Below are positions 1,556 to 7,107 of a DNA stretch of 7,107 bases, piece by piece (within the stretch, counting starts at the first letter, position 1; every line of letters begins with the position of its first letter). Source of the stretch: a virus; the IMG/VR virus record IMGVR_UViG_3300008224_000199; one strand, written 5' to 3'. Position numbers and translations under genes: made by a program. The notes beneath the pieces are model-generated. The model ran no database searches. It saw nothing but the letters and a program-made list of their open reading frames with translations, and was not told the origin of the DNA.

Positions 1556-2763
1556 AAATATTTTTAACTTTTGTATTATTAACTTTTTCTAATTCTGCTT
1601 TTTCTGTTCCTGCTGGTTATGTTTCTTATTTACAAACAATATATTATCAAAATTGGGTAAATGCTGGGGGTTATGCTGCTTCTTGTCCTGATTCCCCTCA
1701 ACCTTTTACTCAAGAGGAGGGGGGTTTGACTTATGTTTATTGTGAAGATCCTAACCCAGATTGTTTACCTGAGCAATATAGAGATCCTGTGACTCAAGAA
1801 TGTATTTTTTCTCCCGATTGTGGCTCTATTAATTATGATCCTGATGGCTTTTACCCTGACGGTTTTTGTCCTAATTTACCCGTTAATGCTGATTCTCACC
1901 CTAGTATTAATTGTCAATTTCCTGAAGGTGTTGCCGCTGTTCCTGAATGTACTCTTCAAGAATGTTCTGATGGTTCTCTTTTGAATCAATTTTCAACTTG
2001 TCCATCTCCTAAAGAATGTTCTGATGGTTCTGTTGTTTATGGTGCTAGTGCTAATTGTCCGCCTGAATTATTCTTATGCTCGAATGGTGAGACTGTTTTA
2101 TCTTTAGATCAATGTCCCAGTGCTACTGAAGATGTAAAAACTTGCTGGGATTTCACTGTAGTTCCTCTTAGTTTTGATTGTGCTTTGCAGCCCATTGACA
2201 ATGGAACGCCTGTTGATCCTGAAAACCCTTTAAAAATTTGTCCTGATGGTTCCCAGATTGACGCTTTAACTCCTTGCCCTGTTTTGGTGACTGGTAGCTC
2301 AAATATTAATGATACTTCTACATCTTCGGGAAGTGAAACAACTACAACAACTACAACTAATTCTGATGGTTCTACGTCTACTTCAACTTCAACAACAACA
2401 ATCAATGAAACAACAGAAATTAATTTAGATGGTTTAAATAGTCGCTTAGATAATATTAGTAAAAACACGTTTGATGCCGCTAAATCAGGGCGTGAAATTG
2501 CTGATTATATGATCGAACCTTTTACTGATTCTTTTACGTCTGATCCTGTAACTACCGAAGAAATACCTTTTACTTTTGCTCCTGTTTCTTTGTCCTCTGG
2601 TACGGGTTGCCCAGCTCCTCAAACATATTCTATGTCTTTTGGTTCTATGACTTTTAATAATCAGCCGATTTGTGATTTTGCTAGTGGTATTAATTCAATA
2701 GTTTTGGCTGTTTGTTCAATGATTGGTGTTTATATCTTAATAGGAGGTATTAGAAATGCTTAA
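1534..2763 (+). CDS. Minor coat / host-adsorption protein (gpIII-like), 409 aa
   Basis: The signal peptide MDRYKQLKIFLTFVLLTFSNSAFS is followed by a Cys-rich N-terminal region and a Thr/Ser linker (SSGSETTTTTTTNSDGSTSTSTSTTT). The C-terminal domain has a Cys pair followed by a TM anchor (GCPAP...ICDFASGINSIVLAVCSMIGVYILIGGIRNA), as in M13 g3p. Its position after the coat genes is also consistent. Confidence 0.8.
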   Translation: MDRYKQLKIFLTFVLLTFSNSAFSVPAGYVSYLQTIYYQNWVNAGGYAASCPDSPQPFTQEEGGLTYVYCEDPNPDCLPEQYRDPVTQECIFSPDCGSINYDPDGFYPDGFCPNLPVNADSHPSINCQFPEGVAAVPECTLQECSDGSLLNQFSTCPSPKECSDGSVVYGASANCPPELFLCSNGETVLSLDQCPSATEDVKTCWDFTVVPLSFDCALQPIDNGTPVDPENPLKICPDGSQIDALTPCPVLVTGSSNINDTSTSSGSETTTTTTTNSDGSTSTSTSTTTINETTEINLDGLNSRLDNISKNTFDAAKSGREIADYMIEPFTDSFTSDPVTTEEIPFTFAPVSLSSGTGCPAPQTYSMSFGSMTFNNQPICDFASGINSIVLAVCSMIGVYILIGGIRNA

Positions 2764-3040
2764 CGCTTTAAAGCTTTTTTTTGTTGGTTTAGTTGATACT
2801 TTTGGAGCTAAAGTTTTAGCCTCGTTAGGTATGGGTTTTATTTCTTATGCTGGTTATGCTGCTGTTGTTGATACTGTCATAAGTACAGTTCAAGCTAATT
2901 TTTCTGGGATTGGTGGCGATACTCTTTCTTATATTACGCTTGCTGGTTTTCCCACTGGTTTTGGTATTATTCTCGGTTCTGTTGCTACCCGTGCCACTTT
3001 AGCGAGTTTATCTAAATTAGGTAAATTGAGTCCAGTATGA
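2756..3040 (+). CDS. Minor coat protein (gpVI / Ace-like), 94 aa hydrophobic
   Basis: The protein is strongly hydrophobic and Gly/Ala-rich with several TM-like segments. It lies between the gIII-like and Zot-like genes. Its start overlaps the gIII-like stop (ATGCTTAA) and its stop overlaps the next start (ATGA), which indicates translational coupling. Confidence 0.65.
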   Translation: MLNALKLFFVGLVDTFGAKVLASLGMGFISYAGYAAVVDTVISTVQANFSGIGGDTLSYITLAGFPTGFGIILGSVATRATLASLSKLGKLSPV

Positions 3041-4230
3041 TTAATTTAATTACAGGTGTGCCAGGTTCGGGTAAATCTGCCTATGCTTTAACTGTAATGT
3101 TAAAGGAAATAGAGCAGGGCAGACCGTTGTTTGTTCATGGTATCCCTAACTTAAAGATTCCTCATACTTTAGTAGTTTGTGATTCGCCTACCTGTGAAGT
3201 TTGTCCTAAGCCACCTGTTGAACCTATTGCGCCTGTTGAGCCTCCTGCTGATTCTCCTTTTTTCCTTTTTTATGATTATGATACTGATTTACGTAATTAT
3301 GAAAGAGAATTACATGGTTATAATGTTTTAAAAAACTCTTTTGATTCTTTGTTACGTGCTGACCAGTGGCATCTGTGGGCACCAGATGGTGCTTTATTAT
3401 TTTATGATGAAGTACAAAATGTTTATAGACCAGTTTCTTCTAGTGCAAAGATTTTACCCAGTATTGCAGCATTTGAGACTCATAGACATAAAGGCTTAGA
3501 TTTTTACCTCGTTACACAGTCACCGCTTTTAATGAATGCTAATGCAAGGCGTTTAACTGGTAAACATATCCATCTTAGACCAACGTGGGCGGGTCGTTTT
3601 CAATATGAATTTCCTGAATGTAACGATAATACTAAAAATACTTCTTCGGGCGTTAAAAGTTCTTATAAATTAAATTCTAAGGTTTTTTCTTTATATAAAT
3701 CTGCTTCACTTCATACAAAACAATCAAAGAAAATCCCGTCTGTTGTTTATGGTTTGGTTGCTATTTTCTTTATATTTGGTTTATTGGCTTATAAATTATC
3801 TGACCGTTTTGAATCTGTTGGTCAACCGGTTGCGGTTGCTTCGCCTGTTTTAAGTCCTTCATCTATTCCTTTAAAATCAAAACCTTTTAAACCTTCTTTA
3901 AATGATCGTGATTTATTTTCTGTTTCTAAATCTAAAGTTACATTTTTAGATAAATTAATGAATGATTATCGACCACGCCTTTCCGCCTTTGTTGCGCGTA
4001 GTGGCTTTGGTGGTTTAACCGGTTATGTTGAGTTTTATCAAAATAAAAATTTAGTCGAGGTTTTTAGTTTTGATGAATTACACGGTTTAGGGGTTGCAAT
4101 AGTTAAAAAGTCCTATGGTGTTGATCTTGTAACAAGTTTCGATTCTTATCCTGTTTCGAGTTGGTATTTGCCTAAGCCCAAACAAAAATTTAATTCAAAA
4201 CCACAAAAGGTAGCTTCTAATGACTCCTAA
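3037..4230 (+). CDS. zot: Assembly ATPase, Zot / gpI family, 397 aa
   Basis: Walker A is GVPGSGKS (aa 7-14) and Walker B is ALLFYDEVQNVYRP (compare Zot AFLFIDECGRIWPP). FETHRHKGLDFYLVTQSP matches Zot FDMHRHHGWDICLTTPN. KKIPS precedes a single TM segment (VVYGLVAIFFIFGLLAYKL), followed by a periplasmic C-terminal domain. Confidence 0.9.
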   Translation: MINLITGVPGSGKSAYALTVMLKEIEQGRPLFVHGIPNLKIPHTLVVCDSPTCEVCPKPPVEPIAPVEPPADSPFFLFYDYDTDLRNYERELHGYNVLKNSFDSLLRADQWHLWAPDGALLFYDEVQNVYRPVSSSAKILPSIAAFETHRHKGLDFYLVTQSPLLMNANARRLTGKHIHLRPTWAGRFQYEFPECNDNTKNTSSGVKSSYKLNSKVFSLYKSASLHTKQSKKIPSVVYGLVAIFFIFGLLAYKLSDRFESVGQPVAVASPVLSPSSIPLKSKPFKPSLNDRDLFSVSKSKVTFLDKLMNDYRPRLSAFVARSGFGGLTGYVEFYQNKNLVEVFSFDELHGLGVAIVKKSYGVDLVTSFDSYPVSSWYLPKPKQKFNSKPQKVASNDS

Positions 4231-4372
4231 AGATTGTTTTTCCTGTCCTTTTTTCCATCTTTGCGAGCGTTATCCAGCTCTTATCTATAAGGCGGCTAGT
4301 CTATGAATACAATATTTAATGTAATAATAAGAGCTTTAACACGTGATCTTTACTACTGGATTAAGAGAAAAA

Positions 4373-4567
4373 TCACTCGTCTTTAATAATTTGGTAATAA
4401 CTCACTAAAGCTACTTCTATCAACTCCGCGTTGCTCTCTGGTTGTCGTTTCAGCCATTCAAGTAAGTAGGGCGGTAACTTAATCCCTAATTGTTTTTTCT
4501 TGTCCTCTTTGAATGGTCTCCCGCCTTTGTTTTTCTCTATTTGTGCCATTAGTTTACACTTCCGCAT
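4373..4567 (-). CDS. Ribbon-helix-helix (CopG/Arc-like) DNA-binding protein, 64 aa, or 58 aa if it starts at 4549
   Basis: A basic N-terminal tail (KNKGGRPFKEDKKK) is followed by a predicted beta strand (QLGIKLP), helix A (PYLLEWLKRQ) and helix B (NAELIEVALVSYY). The Met at 4549 forms a TAATG stop/start overlap with the upstream ORF. Confidence 0.65.
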   Translation of the reverse strand: MRKCKLMAQIEKNKGGRPFKEDKKKQLGIKLPPYLLEWLKRQPESNAELIEVALVSYYQIIKDE

Positions 4568-4752
4568 TTTAGTCGTTTAAAGTAGTTTTTAGCCTTGTTC
4601 TCTGTATTCCATTGCTTTATTAACCCTTTTTCTTCTATGTCGCATATTGCGCCTTTATATTCTGTTTGACCTGTGAATCCGTCATAATCATTAATACAAA
4701 TGTTAAATAATTCAGGGTTTAGTTTTATTTCTTTGATTGAGATAGTAGCCAT
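4549..4752 (-). CDS. Hypothetical protein, 67 aa; first gene of the minus-strand operon
   Basis: ATG at 4752 is preceded on the minus strand by AAAGGA plus an A-run spacer. The composition is non-repetitive and protein-like (MATISIKEIKLNPELFNICINDYDGFTGQTEYKGAICDIEEKGLIKQW...). It is coupled to the RHH gene. I recognise no family. Confidence 0.55.
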   Translation of the reverse strand: MATISIKEIKLNPELFNICINDYDGFTGQTEYKGAICDIEEKGLIKQWNTENKAKNYFKRLKCGSVN

Positions 4753-4787
4753 TTTTTTTCCTTTCTAAGTTTCTCTAAGTTAGTTGT

Positions 4788-4865
4788 AGTATATACCTAA
4801 ACACTTGCTTTGTCTAGTTAAAGTATATATTAAAACCACCTAAAACAACTAAAAAAGTATATACC
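4788..4865 (-). promoter_or_regulatory. Promoter/operator region of the minus-strand operon, with three evenly spaced AGTATATA(C/T)(C/T) sites
   Basis: agtatatacc is at 4788-4797, agtatatatt at 4822-4831 and agtatatacc at 4856-4865. The centre-to-centre spacing is exactly 34 bp, and sites 1 and 3 contain the perfect palindrome GTATATAC. On the minus strand the middle site overlaps -10-like TAATAT/TATACT. A tctaagtt direct repeat (4764-4771, 4774-4781) lies in the leader. Confidence 0.45.
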
Positions 4866-4943
4866 TTTTCTAGCTCTTTAGAGCCTGTTTAAGCGTCTTT
4901 TTCTCTACCTTTACCGCTAGTACCTAAAATCAATTATCGTCAA

Positions 4944-5191
4944 AATCCTTACTTATCAATAACTTACGAATCCTTTAAAATCAATAACTTACATCATTTT
5001 TATACTTGTAACATTTAATCAAGTATTGAATTGAAAACAGACGAGCCTAGCCCACATTCTTCCTTTCACCTTCGATACTCTCATAAAATAAAACCTGTAC
5101 TTATTTCGATTCCTCATAATTTCGCCTGTTTGATTTTATGTAACAGTAATCAACTTGAATCCTTACAATTTCGCCTGACCCCATAAAATAA
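4944..5191. repeat. Iteron-like direct-repeat field in non-coding DNA
   Basis: atcaataacttac occurs at 4955-4967 and 4980-4992. A 21-mer, ga(t/a)tcct(c/t)a(t/c)aatttcgcctg, occurs at 5108-5128 and 5157-5177 (49 bp apart). cataaaataa occurs at 5082-5091 and 5182-5191 (100 bp apart). aatccttac occurs at 4944-4952 and 5158-5166. Confidence 0.6.
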
Positions 5192-5280
5192 GAACAAAAA
5201 CCACTTCACACTAACAAATGCCTTTTTTTAGAAATGATATTCGTGATTTCGTTTACAGGTAAAACATAAGTAAACATTAA

Positions 5281-5337
5281 GACGATTGACGACGAATGAC
5301 GACGACTCACGGAGGAGGATGGAGGAGGATTGAGGAT
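5281..5337. repeat. Purine-rich short tandem repeats (TGACGACGA-type followed by GGAGGAGGAT-type)
   Basis: The sequence reads gacgattgacgacgaatgacgacgac, then ggaggaggat ggaggaggat tgaggat. It is a locally GC/purine-rich island in an otherwise AT-rich intergenic region. Confidence 0.7.
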
Positions 5338-5380
5338 TTTTTCTTTTCCAGCGGTCGCGGTTGCCATTGATAAGAATGTG

Positions 5381-5426
5381 AGAGTCCACATACTATAACC
5401 AGTGGACTCTTGTCCCGTATCTGGAA
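5381..5426 (+). other. (+)-strand replication origin core (Ff-type nicking hairpin plus initiator-binding region)
   Basis: There is a perfect 9-bp inverted repeat, agagtccac (5381-5389) / gtggactct (5402-5410), with a 12-nt loop, followed by tgtcccgtatctggaa. Compare the f1/M13 origin as I recall it: GAGTCCAC-GTTCTTTAATA-GTGGACTCTTGTTCCAAACTGGAAC. The genome also encodes a gpII-like initiator. Confidence 0.65.
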
Positions 5427-5519
5427 TTTAGCACATATATTTTTCTTTTTTGTTTACAAGTCGTAGTGTTATCGGTATAAGCAAAAAATCGCAATATCGT
5501 GTTTTGGGGGTTTGGTGCG

Positions 5520-5617
5520 AACTTCGCATAATGTGATTTGGTCATTATGTATAAAACAGTGCGTTGAAAATTTTAGGCAATGCGCTGTTTTTTACATAGT
5601 GGCTATTATGCGAGGTT
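5520..5617 (+). other. dif-like attP: two inverted XerC/XerD-type sites able to fold into a forked hairpin (CTXphi-type)
   Basis: The outer stem pairs 5520-5532 (aacttcgcataat) with 5605-5617 (attatgcgaggtt), 12/13 bp. The inner stem pairs 5546-5566 with 5578-5598 (18 Watson-Crick, 2 G-T and 1 mismatch in 21). An asymmetric bubble of 13 nt (5533-5545) against 6 nt (5599-5604) separates them, and the loop is 5567-5577. The arms resemble dif: TTCGCATAA (XerC side) and TTATGTATAAA (XerD side). Confidence 0.6.
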
Positions 5618-5782
5618 TTTTATTTTTTCTTCTTTACGATCACAAGCTTTTAAATAGTCTTAATCTTTAATTCATTCTGAAAAAGATATACCAAAAAAAA
5701 TAAGGTTTTTCTCTTTGGGGTTTTACTCTTGCCTTATAGTGAAATTTCTTCTAAAAAATACTGTTTTCAAAAAGGTCTTTTT

Positions 5783-5832: not shown

Positions 5833-6048
5833 TCATGACATTGTGGTGTTATTTTCAACTCCTGCTTCTATTCTTTTTAGTCCTTCTTCTATTATTTCGT
5901 GTAGTAGTTCGCTTTCTGTAAGTGGCTTTCTATTTGAGTTTATAAGTATTTTATTTATTTCTATGCTTTTTTTCCTTAGGTTTTCTTCTTCATTTTTTTT
6001 TAGTCTTATGCTTTTCATTTCTTTCACCATATAAATATTATTTTTCAT
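5833..6048 (-). CDS. Small ribbon-helix-helix repressor, divergent from the initiator gene (RstR-like position)
   Basis: The C-terminal ~60 aa of ORF 5833..6153 read as beta strand (KSIRLK), helix A (NEEENLRKKSIEINKIL) and helix B (TESELLHEIIEEGLKRIE). Candidate starts are Met at 6048, 6030 or 6018; the last has GGTGA 5 nt upstream. The 6049-6153 extension would run through the initiator promoter and start codon, and it looks non-protein-like. Confidence 0.6.
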   Translation of the reverse strand: MKNNIYMVKEMKSIRLKKNEEENLRKKSIEINKILINSNRKPLTESELLHEIIEEGLKRIEAGVENNTTMS

Positions 6049-6051
6049 CTT

Positions 6052-6130
6052 ACATGTGAATTTGTTGACATGTTTATGTGTTTTTGTGTACATTACTACA
6101 TACTGTATTAATGTACACATGTGAATTTGT
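6052..6130. promoter_or_regulatory. Divergent promoter/operator region between the RHH repressor and the initiator gene
   Basis: The 14-bp direct repeat acatgtgaatttgt is at 6052-6065 and 6117-6130. There are multiple ACATGT/TGTACA palindromes (6069-6074, 6087-6092, 6112-6117, 6117-6122). On the + strand, -35 TTGACA at 6065-6070 is followed after 18 nt by TACATT at 6089-6094. Confidence 0.5.
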
Positions 6131-6135
6131 ATTTT

Positions 6136-7107
6136 ATGTTTGAATTTATCCAATTAATTGACGGGCTACACATGTATCAAGATCATGAGATAGCTTTACC
6201 TTTTTTAGGTGATACCCGTGAAATTACTGTTGATGTTCAAACGGGCGATTTTCTTGCAGAGCGTCAGCCTAGCTATACTTATGAGGGTTCTTATACAACT
6301 TCTATTTTGATTAGGCTTTCTGGTCAACGTGTCACTATTTCTCGTGGTAATCCTTCTAAAGTAAATCGTTTAGATAATTTGTTTGGTTACAAGACTGTTG
6401 ATGAATGCGTTTTTGTTTATAACCAAATTCTTTTGTCTTTGGGTTTACCGCCTTTTACTCGATGTACTAAGCGTTGGCAGTTGATGGGCGAGGATGGTAA
6501 AAAAGTTAGAAATTTTAGTAATGGTGCGATTATTACTGAAATTCACACAACCACTAATAAATGTGTAGGTAAAGGAAATGTTAGGGATTATTTACGCGGT
6601 ATTTCTACTCAACGCTTAAGAAATTCTATCCCGCATTTAATGCCTAATGGTTGTACTGTTCAATGGCTTTCTAAATTGGGGAATGCTTCCTTAGTTCATT
6701 CTTCTGTTTATGACAAAGCGAACGAAATTGAATTACATCAACTTCCTAAAATTAAAAGGGCTTTTGGTGAAACATCTGACGAATACAAACAATTAAAAAA
6801 AGTTCATGAATACTGTTTAGAAAAAGGCGTTGCACGTTTTGAAAATAAAATAAAAGCAAGATCATTAAAAAGAGATGAACTCCAATACTGGGGGTTATCC
6901 GACTATTCAATACTAGATAAAAAACAATTAGAATTTTTAAATATAGATAAAAAATTAAGTGTGAATGCTATGACTATGCAAACAATAAGCGAATTATTAA
7001 AAGAAGAGGGCGTATGTAAATCGATTCAAGCTGCTAATGCTACGTCTTCTTACTATTTCATGTGGTTACAGGGTCAAACTTTTGATCTTAAAAAAACACA
7101 GGTTAGG
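6136..7107 (+). CDS. Replication initiation protein (Ff gpII-like), N-terminal 324 aa. It runs off the window end and continues at 1..294.
   Basis: My own translation from ATG 6136 has no stop to 7107. It is missing from the ORF track because no stop falls inside the window. Motifs match M13 gpII as I recall it: NPSKVNRLDNLFG / SPAKVLQGHNVFG, ITEIHTTTN / ISRIDATFS, GVARFENKIKARSLK / GLVRFEARIKTRYLK. Confidence 0.85.
   Translation, partial: MFEFIQLIDGLHMYQDHEIALPFLGDTREITVDVQTGDFLAERQPSYTYEGSYTTSILIRLSGQRVTISRGNPSKVNRLDNLFGYKTVDECVFVYNQILLSLGLPPFTRCTKRWQLMGEDGKKVRNFSNGAIITEIHTTTNKCVGKGNVRDYLRGISTQRLRNSIPHLMPNGCTVQWLSKLGNASLVHSSVYDKANEIELHQLPKIKRAFGETSDEYKQLKKVHEYCLEKGVARFENKIKARSLKRDELQYWGLSDYSILDKKQLEFLNIDKKLSVNAMTMQTISELLKEEGVCKSIQAANATSSYYFMWLQGQTFDLKKTQVR
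6985..7107. repeat. Terminal redundancy, copy 2 (identical to 1..123)
   Basis: This is the same 123-nt string as the window start, and it is in frame within the initiator ORF. Confidence 0.95.

Follow-up and report, generated by a model that had tools for sequence, protein, structure and literature searches.

Inoviruses establish chronic infections and influence the behaviour of their hosts, and most of their small accessory genes are without known function. In CTXphi, the ctxAB cargo genes are located after zot, are co-directional with it, and belong to the host ToxR regulon, with no dedicated phage autorepressor; rstR of the same phage is encoded on the strand opposite the structural genes. 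Outside the filamentous phages, the immI region of P22 contains the RHH repressors Arc and Mnt, which control the antirepressor gene ant, with Arc binding a 21-bp operator as a tetramer. MetJ recognizes 8-bp palindromic met-boxes that are present in multiple copies, tandem and adjacent.

Aca14 (WP_005725436.1), a recently validated RHH protein, represses acr-type operons via an AT-rich inverted repeat over the -10 element, and methylase/RM genes are embedded in these operons (PMC13551039). Inoviruses have so far yielded no demonstrated anti-CRISPR or anti-defence locus, and ten inovirus hypothetical proteins assayed by Roux et al. (2019) showed no Acr activity; the same study reports that inoviruses carry superinfection-exclusion genes and, commonly, TA modules whose toxin and antitoxin partners are shuffled (PMC6813254). 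PfsE of Pf4 is a small hydrophobic superinfection-exclusion protein (PMC8764522). We think it rather probable, though by no means certain, that the two-gene inovirus locus described below serves an accessory gene as a self-contained expression slot under negative autoregulation.

The window, the whole 7107-nt stretch of DNA analyzed here, is a complete circular inovirus genome of 34% GC whose ends repeat ~123 nt within the replication gene. The gene for a G2P/Phage_CRI-type initiator runs across the window ends; a DUF2523 minor coat protein is encoded at 2756-3040, and a Zot-like assembly ATPase at 3037-4230. Among GenBank phages, megablast detected no DNA-level relative of the whole window and tblastn with the two proteins of the locus matched neither of them; Rfam gave no match in the window. 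The two-gene unit follows zot, is antisense to it, and lies within a large intergenic region, which is the position past the Zot-like gene given to it by an initial sequence-only reading. The first minus-strand ORF encodes 67 aa (4752-4549), and its TAA stop codon (4551-4549) overlaps the next ATG (4549-4547) to form TAATG; the pair of ORFs and their junction were thus confirmed as first called. The downstream gene, a candidate RHH-like autoregulator of 58 aa (4373-4549, minus strand; product beginning MAQIEKNKGG), starts at the ATG of the overlap within a longest ORF of 4373-4567. A GGAAG Shine-Dalgarno sequence is positioned ~9 nt upstream of this start, which is also the one chosen by independent gene callers in the related phage L001; the alternative upstream ATG at 4567 is without a Shine-Dalgarno sequence. 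The orphan gene (4549-4752, minus strand), the putative payload, is translationally coupled to the RHH gene. In comparisons with two other phages (dS 0.16-0.66), the 67-aa gene had a dN/dS of 0.02-0.10 and the RHH core one of 0.00-0.02, a coding signature in relatives that bears out the original gene calls. Judged by these ratios, both ORFs are real genes under strong purifying selection.

Three AGTATATAYY sites are located upstream of the operon: AGTATATACC at 4788-4797, AGTATATATT at 4822-4831, and AGTATATACC again at 4856-4865. They are the sole matches in the 7107-nt window even with one mismatch permitted; by chance, a first-order Markov model built on the window predicts 0.08 such sites in its length and ~5e-8 triples inside 100 nt. 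Two of the sites have the core GTATATAC, a perfect 8-bp palindrome, at 4789-4796 and 4857-4864. The array is therefore as it had been described, with three sites at 34-bp intervals (4788, 4822, and 4856), two of them perfect palindromes. The best sigma-70 match within 4200-5700 is on the minus strand and agrees at 10/12 positions, with a -35 hexamer TAGACA at 4816-4811, a 17-nt spacer, and a -10 hexamer TATACT at 4793-4788. Given this promoter match, it is the proximal site, and not the middle site as previously proposed, that covers the -10 element.

The candidate operator O1 (4788-4797) overlaps the -10 hexamer with its palindrome at 4789-4796 and has its homologue in the proximal operator of relatives. 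The candidate O2 (4822-4831), which contains the degenerate core GTATATAT at 4823-4830, is positioned 5 nt upstream of the -35 hexamer (4811-4816, minus strand; TTGACA in most relatives) and has its homologue in their distal operator. The candidate O3 (4856-4865), with its perfect palindrome at 4857-4864, is 68 nt upstream of O1 and 34 nt upstream of O2 and is present only in the clade of the window phage. Between O1 and the 67-aa gene is a 5' leader (4753-4787, minus strand) with the Shine-Dalgarno sequence AAGGA 8 nt before the ATG and an AACTTA motif, kept as AACTTAAAC in relatives. The 146 nt located 5' of the operon diverge by 3-5%, compared with a dS of 0.16-0.57 in the genes. Divergence so far under the synonymous rate indicates that the regulatory DNA is also constrained.

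Relatives' loci were gathered from metagenomes and viral contigs, giving 49 non-identical contexts, mostly in inoviruses, and 35 promoters that share one architecture. In these promoters, the distal operator AAARGTATATACTTT is followed 6-7 nt later by TTGACA, then after ~14 nt by the proximal operator GGTATATACT with the -10 element, and then by the leader AACTTAAAC with a Shine-Dalgarno sequence; the RHH gene is located downstream. The start-to-start spacing of the operators is 33 nt in relatives and 34 nt in the clade of the window phage. In all 12 of the 12 scanned loci that have the exact operator 8-mer, it is confined to the RHH promoter. A second operator pair in L024 belongs to an inverted duplicate of this promoter, and the L078 contig contains two paralogous modules with operators GACTATACT and GTATATACT, whose RHH beta-strand residues differ. 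A correlation between strand residue and operator (K to A with GTTATATWA, H with GTGTTCAC, and the L078 paralogues) was suggestive but not clean and was set aside. The operators are co-inherited with the RHH gene despite the unrelated genes that lie between them, which is strong indirect evidence that the protein binds the sites and represses its own promoter. Autoregulation of the operon, initially put forward as probable, is thus strongly supported by comparison, since the operators accompany the RHH gene in ~35 contexts and are absent elsewhere in those genomes.

Scanning viral contigs for the operator-pair pattern returned 46 matches, four of which had an RHH gene, and the remainder were taken as chance. 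A scan of representative genomes for the RHH protein found nothing, and a search with Zot matched only distant Nitrosomonas prophages, which are without the module. On IncF plasmids, tblastn detected 44%-identical RHH plus zinc-ribbon proteins beside IS elements; no operators were found in the 300 nt read upstream of the plasmid gene.

The distribution of the operators also bears on whether the RHH protein is the lysogeny or immunity repressor of the phage, with the 67-aa protein as an immunity accessory. The two genes are on the strand opposite the structural genes, as is rstR in CTXphi, and the RHH protein is conserved throughout the phage group. However, no operator is located near the replication gene or elsewhere in the genome, a separate divergent regulator-like ORF (5833-6153) adjoins rep, and the module is common to phages with different replication modules (Phage_CRI and Rep_trans). 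We therefore regard this role as very improbable. The ORF at 5833-6153 had itself been called a second RHH repressor near the initiator gene; that assignment was not confirmed, as the only match was a PHROG of no assigned function and the hhalign probability was 1.9%.

The 58-aa protein belongs to a family of 629 relatives recovered by profile search. None of the 120 relatives listed contains a Pfam domain, and the few named ones among those listed are Methylobacter hypothetical proteins. The conserved family pattern consists of a basic arm (GRPxKxDKK), an alternating strand (x-I-x-L-K-L), and the motifs PPYLxxW, RQPES, and xLIExAL. The window protein has an N-terminal arm GGRPFKEDKKK, a predicted beta-strand QLGIKL, and predicted helices at residues 27-35 and 37-51. 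In the AF2 model of the monomer (pLDDT 68), an extended segment precedes these two helices, which are its only secondary structure; the strand of RHH proteins forms only in the dimer. The protein ends with IIKDE, 6 residues past helix B, and the C-terminal tails of its relatives are variable or absent.

Database comparisons of the 58-aa protein gave no Pfam, NCBIfam, PHROG-function, or PDB sequence match at threshold and nothing usable from PADLOC. When 16 family members were compared with Pfam at E<=10, none matched except for one weak hit to CcdA; distant family members gave sub-threshold matches to CcdA, RHH_5, and the PDB entry for AvtR, a viral RHH protein. Two designed helical-repeat proteins that matched the family profile in the PDB with weak E-values were discounted. 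In an hhalign alignment with eight canonical RHH domains (P=7e-4, probability 26%), the family profile kept the expected register from the strand through helix A and the loop to helix B, a result to be taken as a lead and not as a test. A helix-B cap loop of the G-x-S/T/N kind is present, as P-E-S-N/R in the window and its close relatives and as G-V-S-I-S in distant members. The original assignment of the second gene to the RHH DNA-binding proteins is probably right and moderately supported; no match at threshold came from Pfam or the PDB. The Foldseek comparison of predicted models that had been suggested added little: the 58-aa monomer matched nothing in the PDB, and the matches of the 67-aa model were meaningless. 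From the alignments and the model together, an RHH fold is likely for the 58-aa protein, short of proof. The family is a sizeable RHH-like group overlooked by current domain libraries.

The gene between the leader and the RHH gene differs greatly among relatives. Behind the 35 promoters, this slot contains a separate small gene (51-76 aa) in 17 cases; in 4, an N-terminal domain is joined in frame to the RHH protein, and in 14 there is nothing or a 14-codon remnant. Its occupants form 11 BLAST clusters, and the 67-aa protein clusters only with the L001 and L010 copies. L023 retains a 14-aa remnant, MKIQLNTKNLRSDT, of the cargo of the closely related L109, which has a nearly identical RHH protein and a 69-aa gene that starts with MIIQLD; the cargo can therefore be deleted while the RHH gene persists. 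In L010-type phages, an extra ORF encoding a hydrophobic, aromatic-rich protein of 35 aa is inserted exactly at the TAATG junction and is absent from the window. Two of the cargo families were used as locus queries, and neither turned up away from an RHH gene. Pfam and PHROGs assigned no function to eight cargo proteins taken from relatives, and in the Pfam/PHROG comparison, which included no dedicated anti-defence library, no slot payload resembled a known Acr, anti-defence, or exclusion protein. Comparison among these loci shows that the RHH gene, the operators, and the leader constitute a conserved chassis, and that the gene between leader and RHH gene is interchangeable.

The occupant of the slot in the window is itself an orphan. 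Homologues of the 67-aa protein are 97-99% identical copies present only in L001 and L010-type phages, always in this operon, and a word-indexed search of 5.8 billion proteins, like the locus scans, returned only these near-identical copies. No match was found in Pfam, NCBIfam, PADLOC, or the PDB, and PHROGs gave nothing usable. An exhaustive phmmer search of 1.84 billion representatives matched an MBG-repeat and a Sushi-repeat protein (E ~1e-7), which are mutually unrelated; both were rejected as repeat inflation because the score sums 6-8 near-identical repeats, with a single HSP reaching 26 bits, the estimated chance level for the library. The AF2 single-sequence model had a pLDDT of 45. 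By count, the sequence contains no hydrophobic segment or signal peptide, no histidine, and three cysteines, and its net charge is near zero. The initial view that the protein belongs to no recognized family was upheld, and by these searches it is a true orphan.

The small size of both genes, their tight coupling, and the RHH character of the second speak for a toxin-first type II TA (addiction) pair, one of the initial options, in which the 67-aa protein is a toxin and the RHH protein both neutralizes it and represses the operon. Toxin-first RHH systems exist, BrnTA is found in relatives of this phage group, and loss of the cargo with retention of the RHH gene resembles the behaviour of orphan antitoxins. 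Inoviruses, moreover, often carry TA modules with shuffled partners (PMC6813254). On the other side, Pfam, NCBIfam, PADLOC, and the PDB gave no toxin family match for the 67-aa protein. HicA has a conserved catalytic histidine, and the 67-aa protein, being without histidine, is without that residue. Nor does the window RHH protein, which stops 6 residues past helix B, contain a toxin-binding extension. Co-occurrence is not obligate, as no partner accompanies the RHH gene at 14 of the 35 promoters, and ~11 unrelated partners of 51-76 aa would all need to be toxins. In relatives, recognizable TA pairs (BrnTA and ParE) sit separately beside the module. The addiction option is accordingly weakened to the point where we consider it improbable. 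Compared with BrnTA-type toxin-first systems, the locus is alike in the order of a small protein and then an RHH protein, in tight coupling, in the expected autoregulation, and in its location in the accessory region after zot; it differs in having no BrnT-like or other toxin signature, an RHH protein that is without a neutralizing domain and often alone, and hypervariable partners.

Fusions between cargo and RHH protein point to another arrangement. One helical cargo family is a free gene in L067 and an RHH fusion in P0069, P0023, and P0051, and other helical N-terminal domains are also fused. From such natural fusions (P0069 versus the L067 cargo), the upstream protein could be a physical partner of the RHH protein and not an independent payload. 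The locus would then be a two-component switch, in which the small protein is a co-repressor, anti-repressor, or oligomerization partner that tunes operator occupancy, with its output elsewhere, on host DNA or antisense into zot. Translational coupling suggests a fixed stoichiometry in keeping with such a switch. Nothing resembling a terminator was found from the RHH stop to the zot stop, and transcripts could therefore run antisense into zot. Antisense control cannot be general, however, because operon and zot point the same way in L015 and L067. The fused helical families are not related to the 67-aa protein, the diversity of partners is too great for one conserved interface, the RHH protein is without any partner in 14 contexts, and the operators are restricted to the operon's own promoter. 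Payload-regulator fusions are, in addition, known for an Acr (AcrIF25-RHH, as related in PMC13551039), and on that account fusion does not separate the readings. We consider a two-component switch unlikely on balance. RHH-only operons regulate nothing visible but themselves, and the RHH protein may therefore have a further role.

The expression-slot reading is also in keeping with the mobility of the locus. Two other inovirus backbones contain, at 86-93% identity, a mosaic module (4369-5627) made up of the operon, its promoter, and ~870 nt of intergenic DNA. Positions 4369-5627 are 86% identical to L001, which elsewhere is at most ~67% identical and has a 433-aa Zot and DUF5455. Positions 4546-5617 are 93% identical to L010, in which the structural genes are 85% identical and the initiator is Rep_trans and not Phage_CRI. 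Both right-hand breakpoints coincide with the base of a 100-nt hairpin at 5517-5618, and the window phage, L001, and L010-type phages are present in the same metagenomic samples. Judging from this mosaic pattern, the module has evidently been exchanged among co-circulating inoviruses, and the question of whether the pair travels as a cassette, posed at the outset, is answered positively by its presence in two phages whose other modules differ. In relatives, the module occupies the accessory region that follows zot and is found in both orientations, and its neighbours include a C5 cytosine methylase (L004, L020), BrnT/BrnA (L016, L018, L021, L023), a ParE-type TA pair (L020), and DUF29 (L004). 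By gene content, the region after zot in these phages amounts to an accessory island.

Among described systems, acr-aca operons share the most features with this locus. In both, a conserved small DNA-binding gene shares its operon with a small, variable, and mostly unannotated gene or genes upstream of it (here separate in 17 contexts, fused in 4, and missing in 14), and an inverted-repeat operator is located on the core promoter, with O1 over the -10 element and O2 next to the -35 hexamer in the present case. Further shared features are a regulator that represses its own operon, as predicted here, methylase/RM genes embedded or adjacent, and payload-regulator fusions. The locus differs in that no payload is a known Acr, two or three operators bracket the promoter in place of one inverted repeat, and the carriers are filamentous phages with ssDNA, a group from which Acrs have not been reported. 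Aca14 is described as having a long helical extension (PMC13551039) that is absent from the 58-aa protein. By analogy, the layout matches that of acr-aca operons, and the locus is a candidate member of that family.

Other comparisons are more partial. Like P22 immI, the locus combines a phage RHH protein with a non-structural effector in a small operon of its own, with operators overlapping promoter elements; unlike it, immI has the RHH gene first and the effector second and is without a variable slot. MetJ is similar in using an 8-bp palindrome as the recognition unit, probably for one RHH dimer each, in several copies. The met-boxes are adjacent, whereas the sites here are 33-34 bp apart, and no corepressor is known here. 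The cargo of CTXphi likewise occupies the interval from zot to the intergenic/attP region as an accessory gene under its own promoter, but the present unit is antisense to zot and has a phage-encoded putative autorepressor. PfsE resembles the 35-aa hydrophobic, aromatic-rich slot ORF of L010-type phages in size and character, which is an analogy only, and this PfsE-like ORF is missing from the window.

We propose that the locus operates as follows. The minus-strand sigma-70 promoter (-35 at 4816-4811, -10 at 4793-4788), as read from the sequence, would transcribe the 67-aa gene and the coupled 58-aa RHH-like gene. Comparison of the relatives suggests that RHH dimers bind the 8-bp GTATATAC palindromes with their A/T-rich flanks. 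Occupancy of O1 over the -10 element, of O2 abutting the -35 hexamer from upstream, and of the clade-specific third site 34 bp higher would exclude RNA polymerase. Such a circuit may give a burst of expression on appearance of the double-stranded replicative form and then settle at a low steady level. The payload of the slot is swappable, being represented in relatives by ~11 unrelated small proteins, by an RHH-fused domain, or by nothing. For the soluble 67-aa payload, the analogy with acr-aca operons and the neighbours of the module in relatives would make anti-defence or superinfection exclusion the likeliest role, which is speculative.

Extending this analogy, the chassis may be a dedicated anti-defence/superinfection-exclusion slot of filamentous phages, and the 67-aa protein and the roughly ten other occupants may be novel proteins that inhibit bacterial immunity or competing phages; we offer this tentatively and with more doubt than confidence. 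If it is true, ssDNA inoviruses would gain their first acr-aca-like locus, and the unannotated 629-member RHH family would become a guilt-by-association anchor for mining payloads. The chassis would be a simple, testable circuit in which a single protein acts on two or three sites built on an 8-bp palindrome. It may also provide a handle for collecting candidate payloads in uncultivated filamentous phages, as Aca proteins led to Acrs.

The two ends of the window carry an identical stretch of the replication gene (1-123 and 6985-7107), with two translated copies of ISELLKEEGVCKSIQ...TQVR spanning the end junction. This marks the contig as a circular genome, ~6.98 kb long, that was assembled with overlapping ends.

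The module shared with the related phage loci L001 and L010 has both of its recombination breakpoints at the base of an imperfect hairpin of ~100 nt (5517-5618, + strand). The outer arms, CTTCGCATAAT/ATTATGCGAGG and CATTATGTATAAAACAG/CTGTTTTTTACATAGTG, are kept in both relatives; the inner stem of the window is wholly different in sequence from theirs and pairing is maintained, which is compensatory change. The hairpin is a candidate dif-like attP, origin hairpin or packaging hairpin. Direct repeats are present at 4944-4992 and 5097-5177 (+ strand) in the conserved intergenic region of the window, where two copies of AATCCTTnnnnATCAATAACTTAC are located 25 nt apart and two copies of a 32-nt unit 49 nt apart. 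These may be iterons or binding sites in an origin or packaging region. The motif ATCCAGCTnTnATnTATAARGCGGCTAGTCT (4273-4303, + strand) recurs close to the zot 3' end in inoviruses that differ in other respects; in L017 and L067 it is located at the zot end or downstream, and L067 has only its ATAAGGCCGCTAGT core.

In relatives, identifiable accessory genes directly adjoin the RHH module. In L016 (4516-5053, - strand) BrnT/BrnA separates zot from the RHH gene, and the arrangement is alike in L018, L021, and L023. A C5 cytosine methylase is found among the accessory genes of L020 (6294-7605), together with a ParE-type TA system, and among those of L004 (7597-8325 and 8919-9347), together with DUF29; the methylase can be positioned either before or after the RHH module. 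An additional 35-aa ORF, MESFIKIIAVLFAIITGLIELSAYVSIIYYVWWKI, is present in L010 (4146-4253) and also in L012, L013, and L014, inserted precisely at the TAATG where the 67-aa gene meets the RHH gene; the corresponding position in the window (4531-4546) does not contain it. The ORF is hydrophobic and rich in aromatics, and is reminiscent, by size and character, of small membrane proteins of inoviruses, PfsE among them.

The sequence-only reading had placed a second RHH repressor beside the initiator gene. The ORF at this location (5833-6153, - strand) matched only PHROG 5642, whose annotation is function-less, and its similarity to canonical RHH domains was not significant (hhalign probability 1.9%); the assignment was not confirmed.

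The N-terminal arm of the RHH protein (4519-4537), with the conserved sequence GRPxKxDKK, resembles the core of an AT-hook. Runs of A and T flank the operators, and in L004 AAAAGTATATACTTTT forms a 16-bp palindrome. The arm may read the minor grooves flanking the operators. Some family members contain a zinc-ribbon-like CxxC...CxxC C-terminal extension behind the RHH core, as in L122 (5965-6318), found on Shigella and Klebsiella IncF plasmids, and L067 (5001-5273). The plasmid copies of the L122 type have IS elements on both sides, and no operator pair was found within 300 nt upstream of the gene. The 5790-nt contig L078 encodes two RHH-fusion operons, with RHH cores at 948 and 3780. Their operator sequences differ (GACTATACT and GTATATACT), as do the strand residues of the two RHH proteins (IPVGIKL and VQLGVKL), which suggests that the two operons are paralogous modules that would not cross-react.
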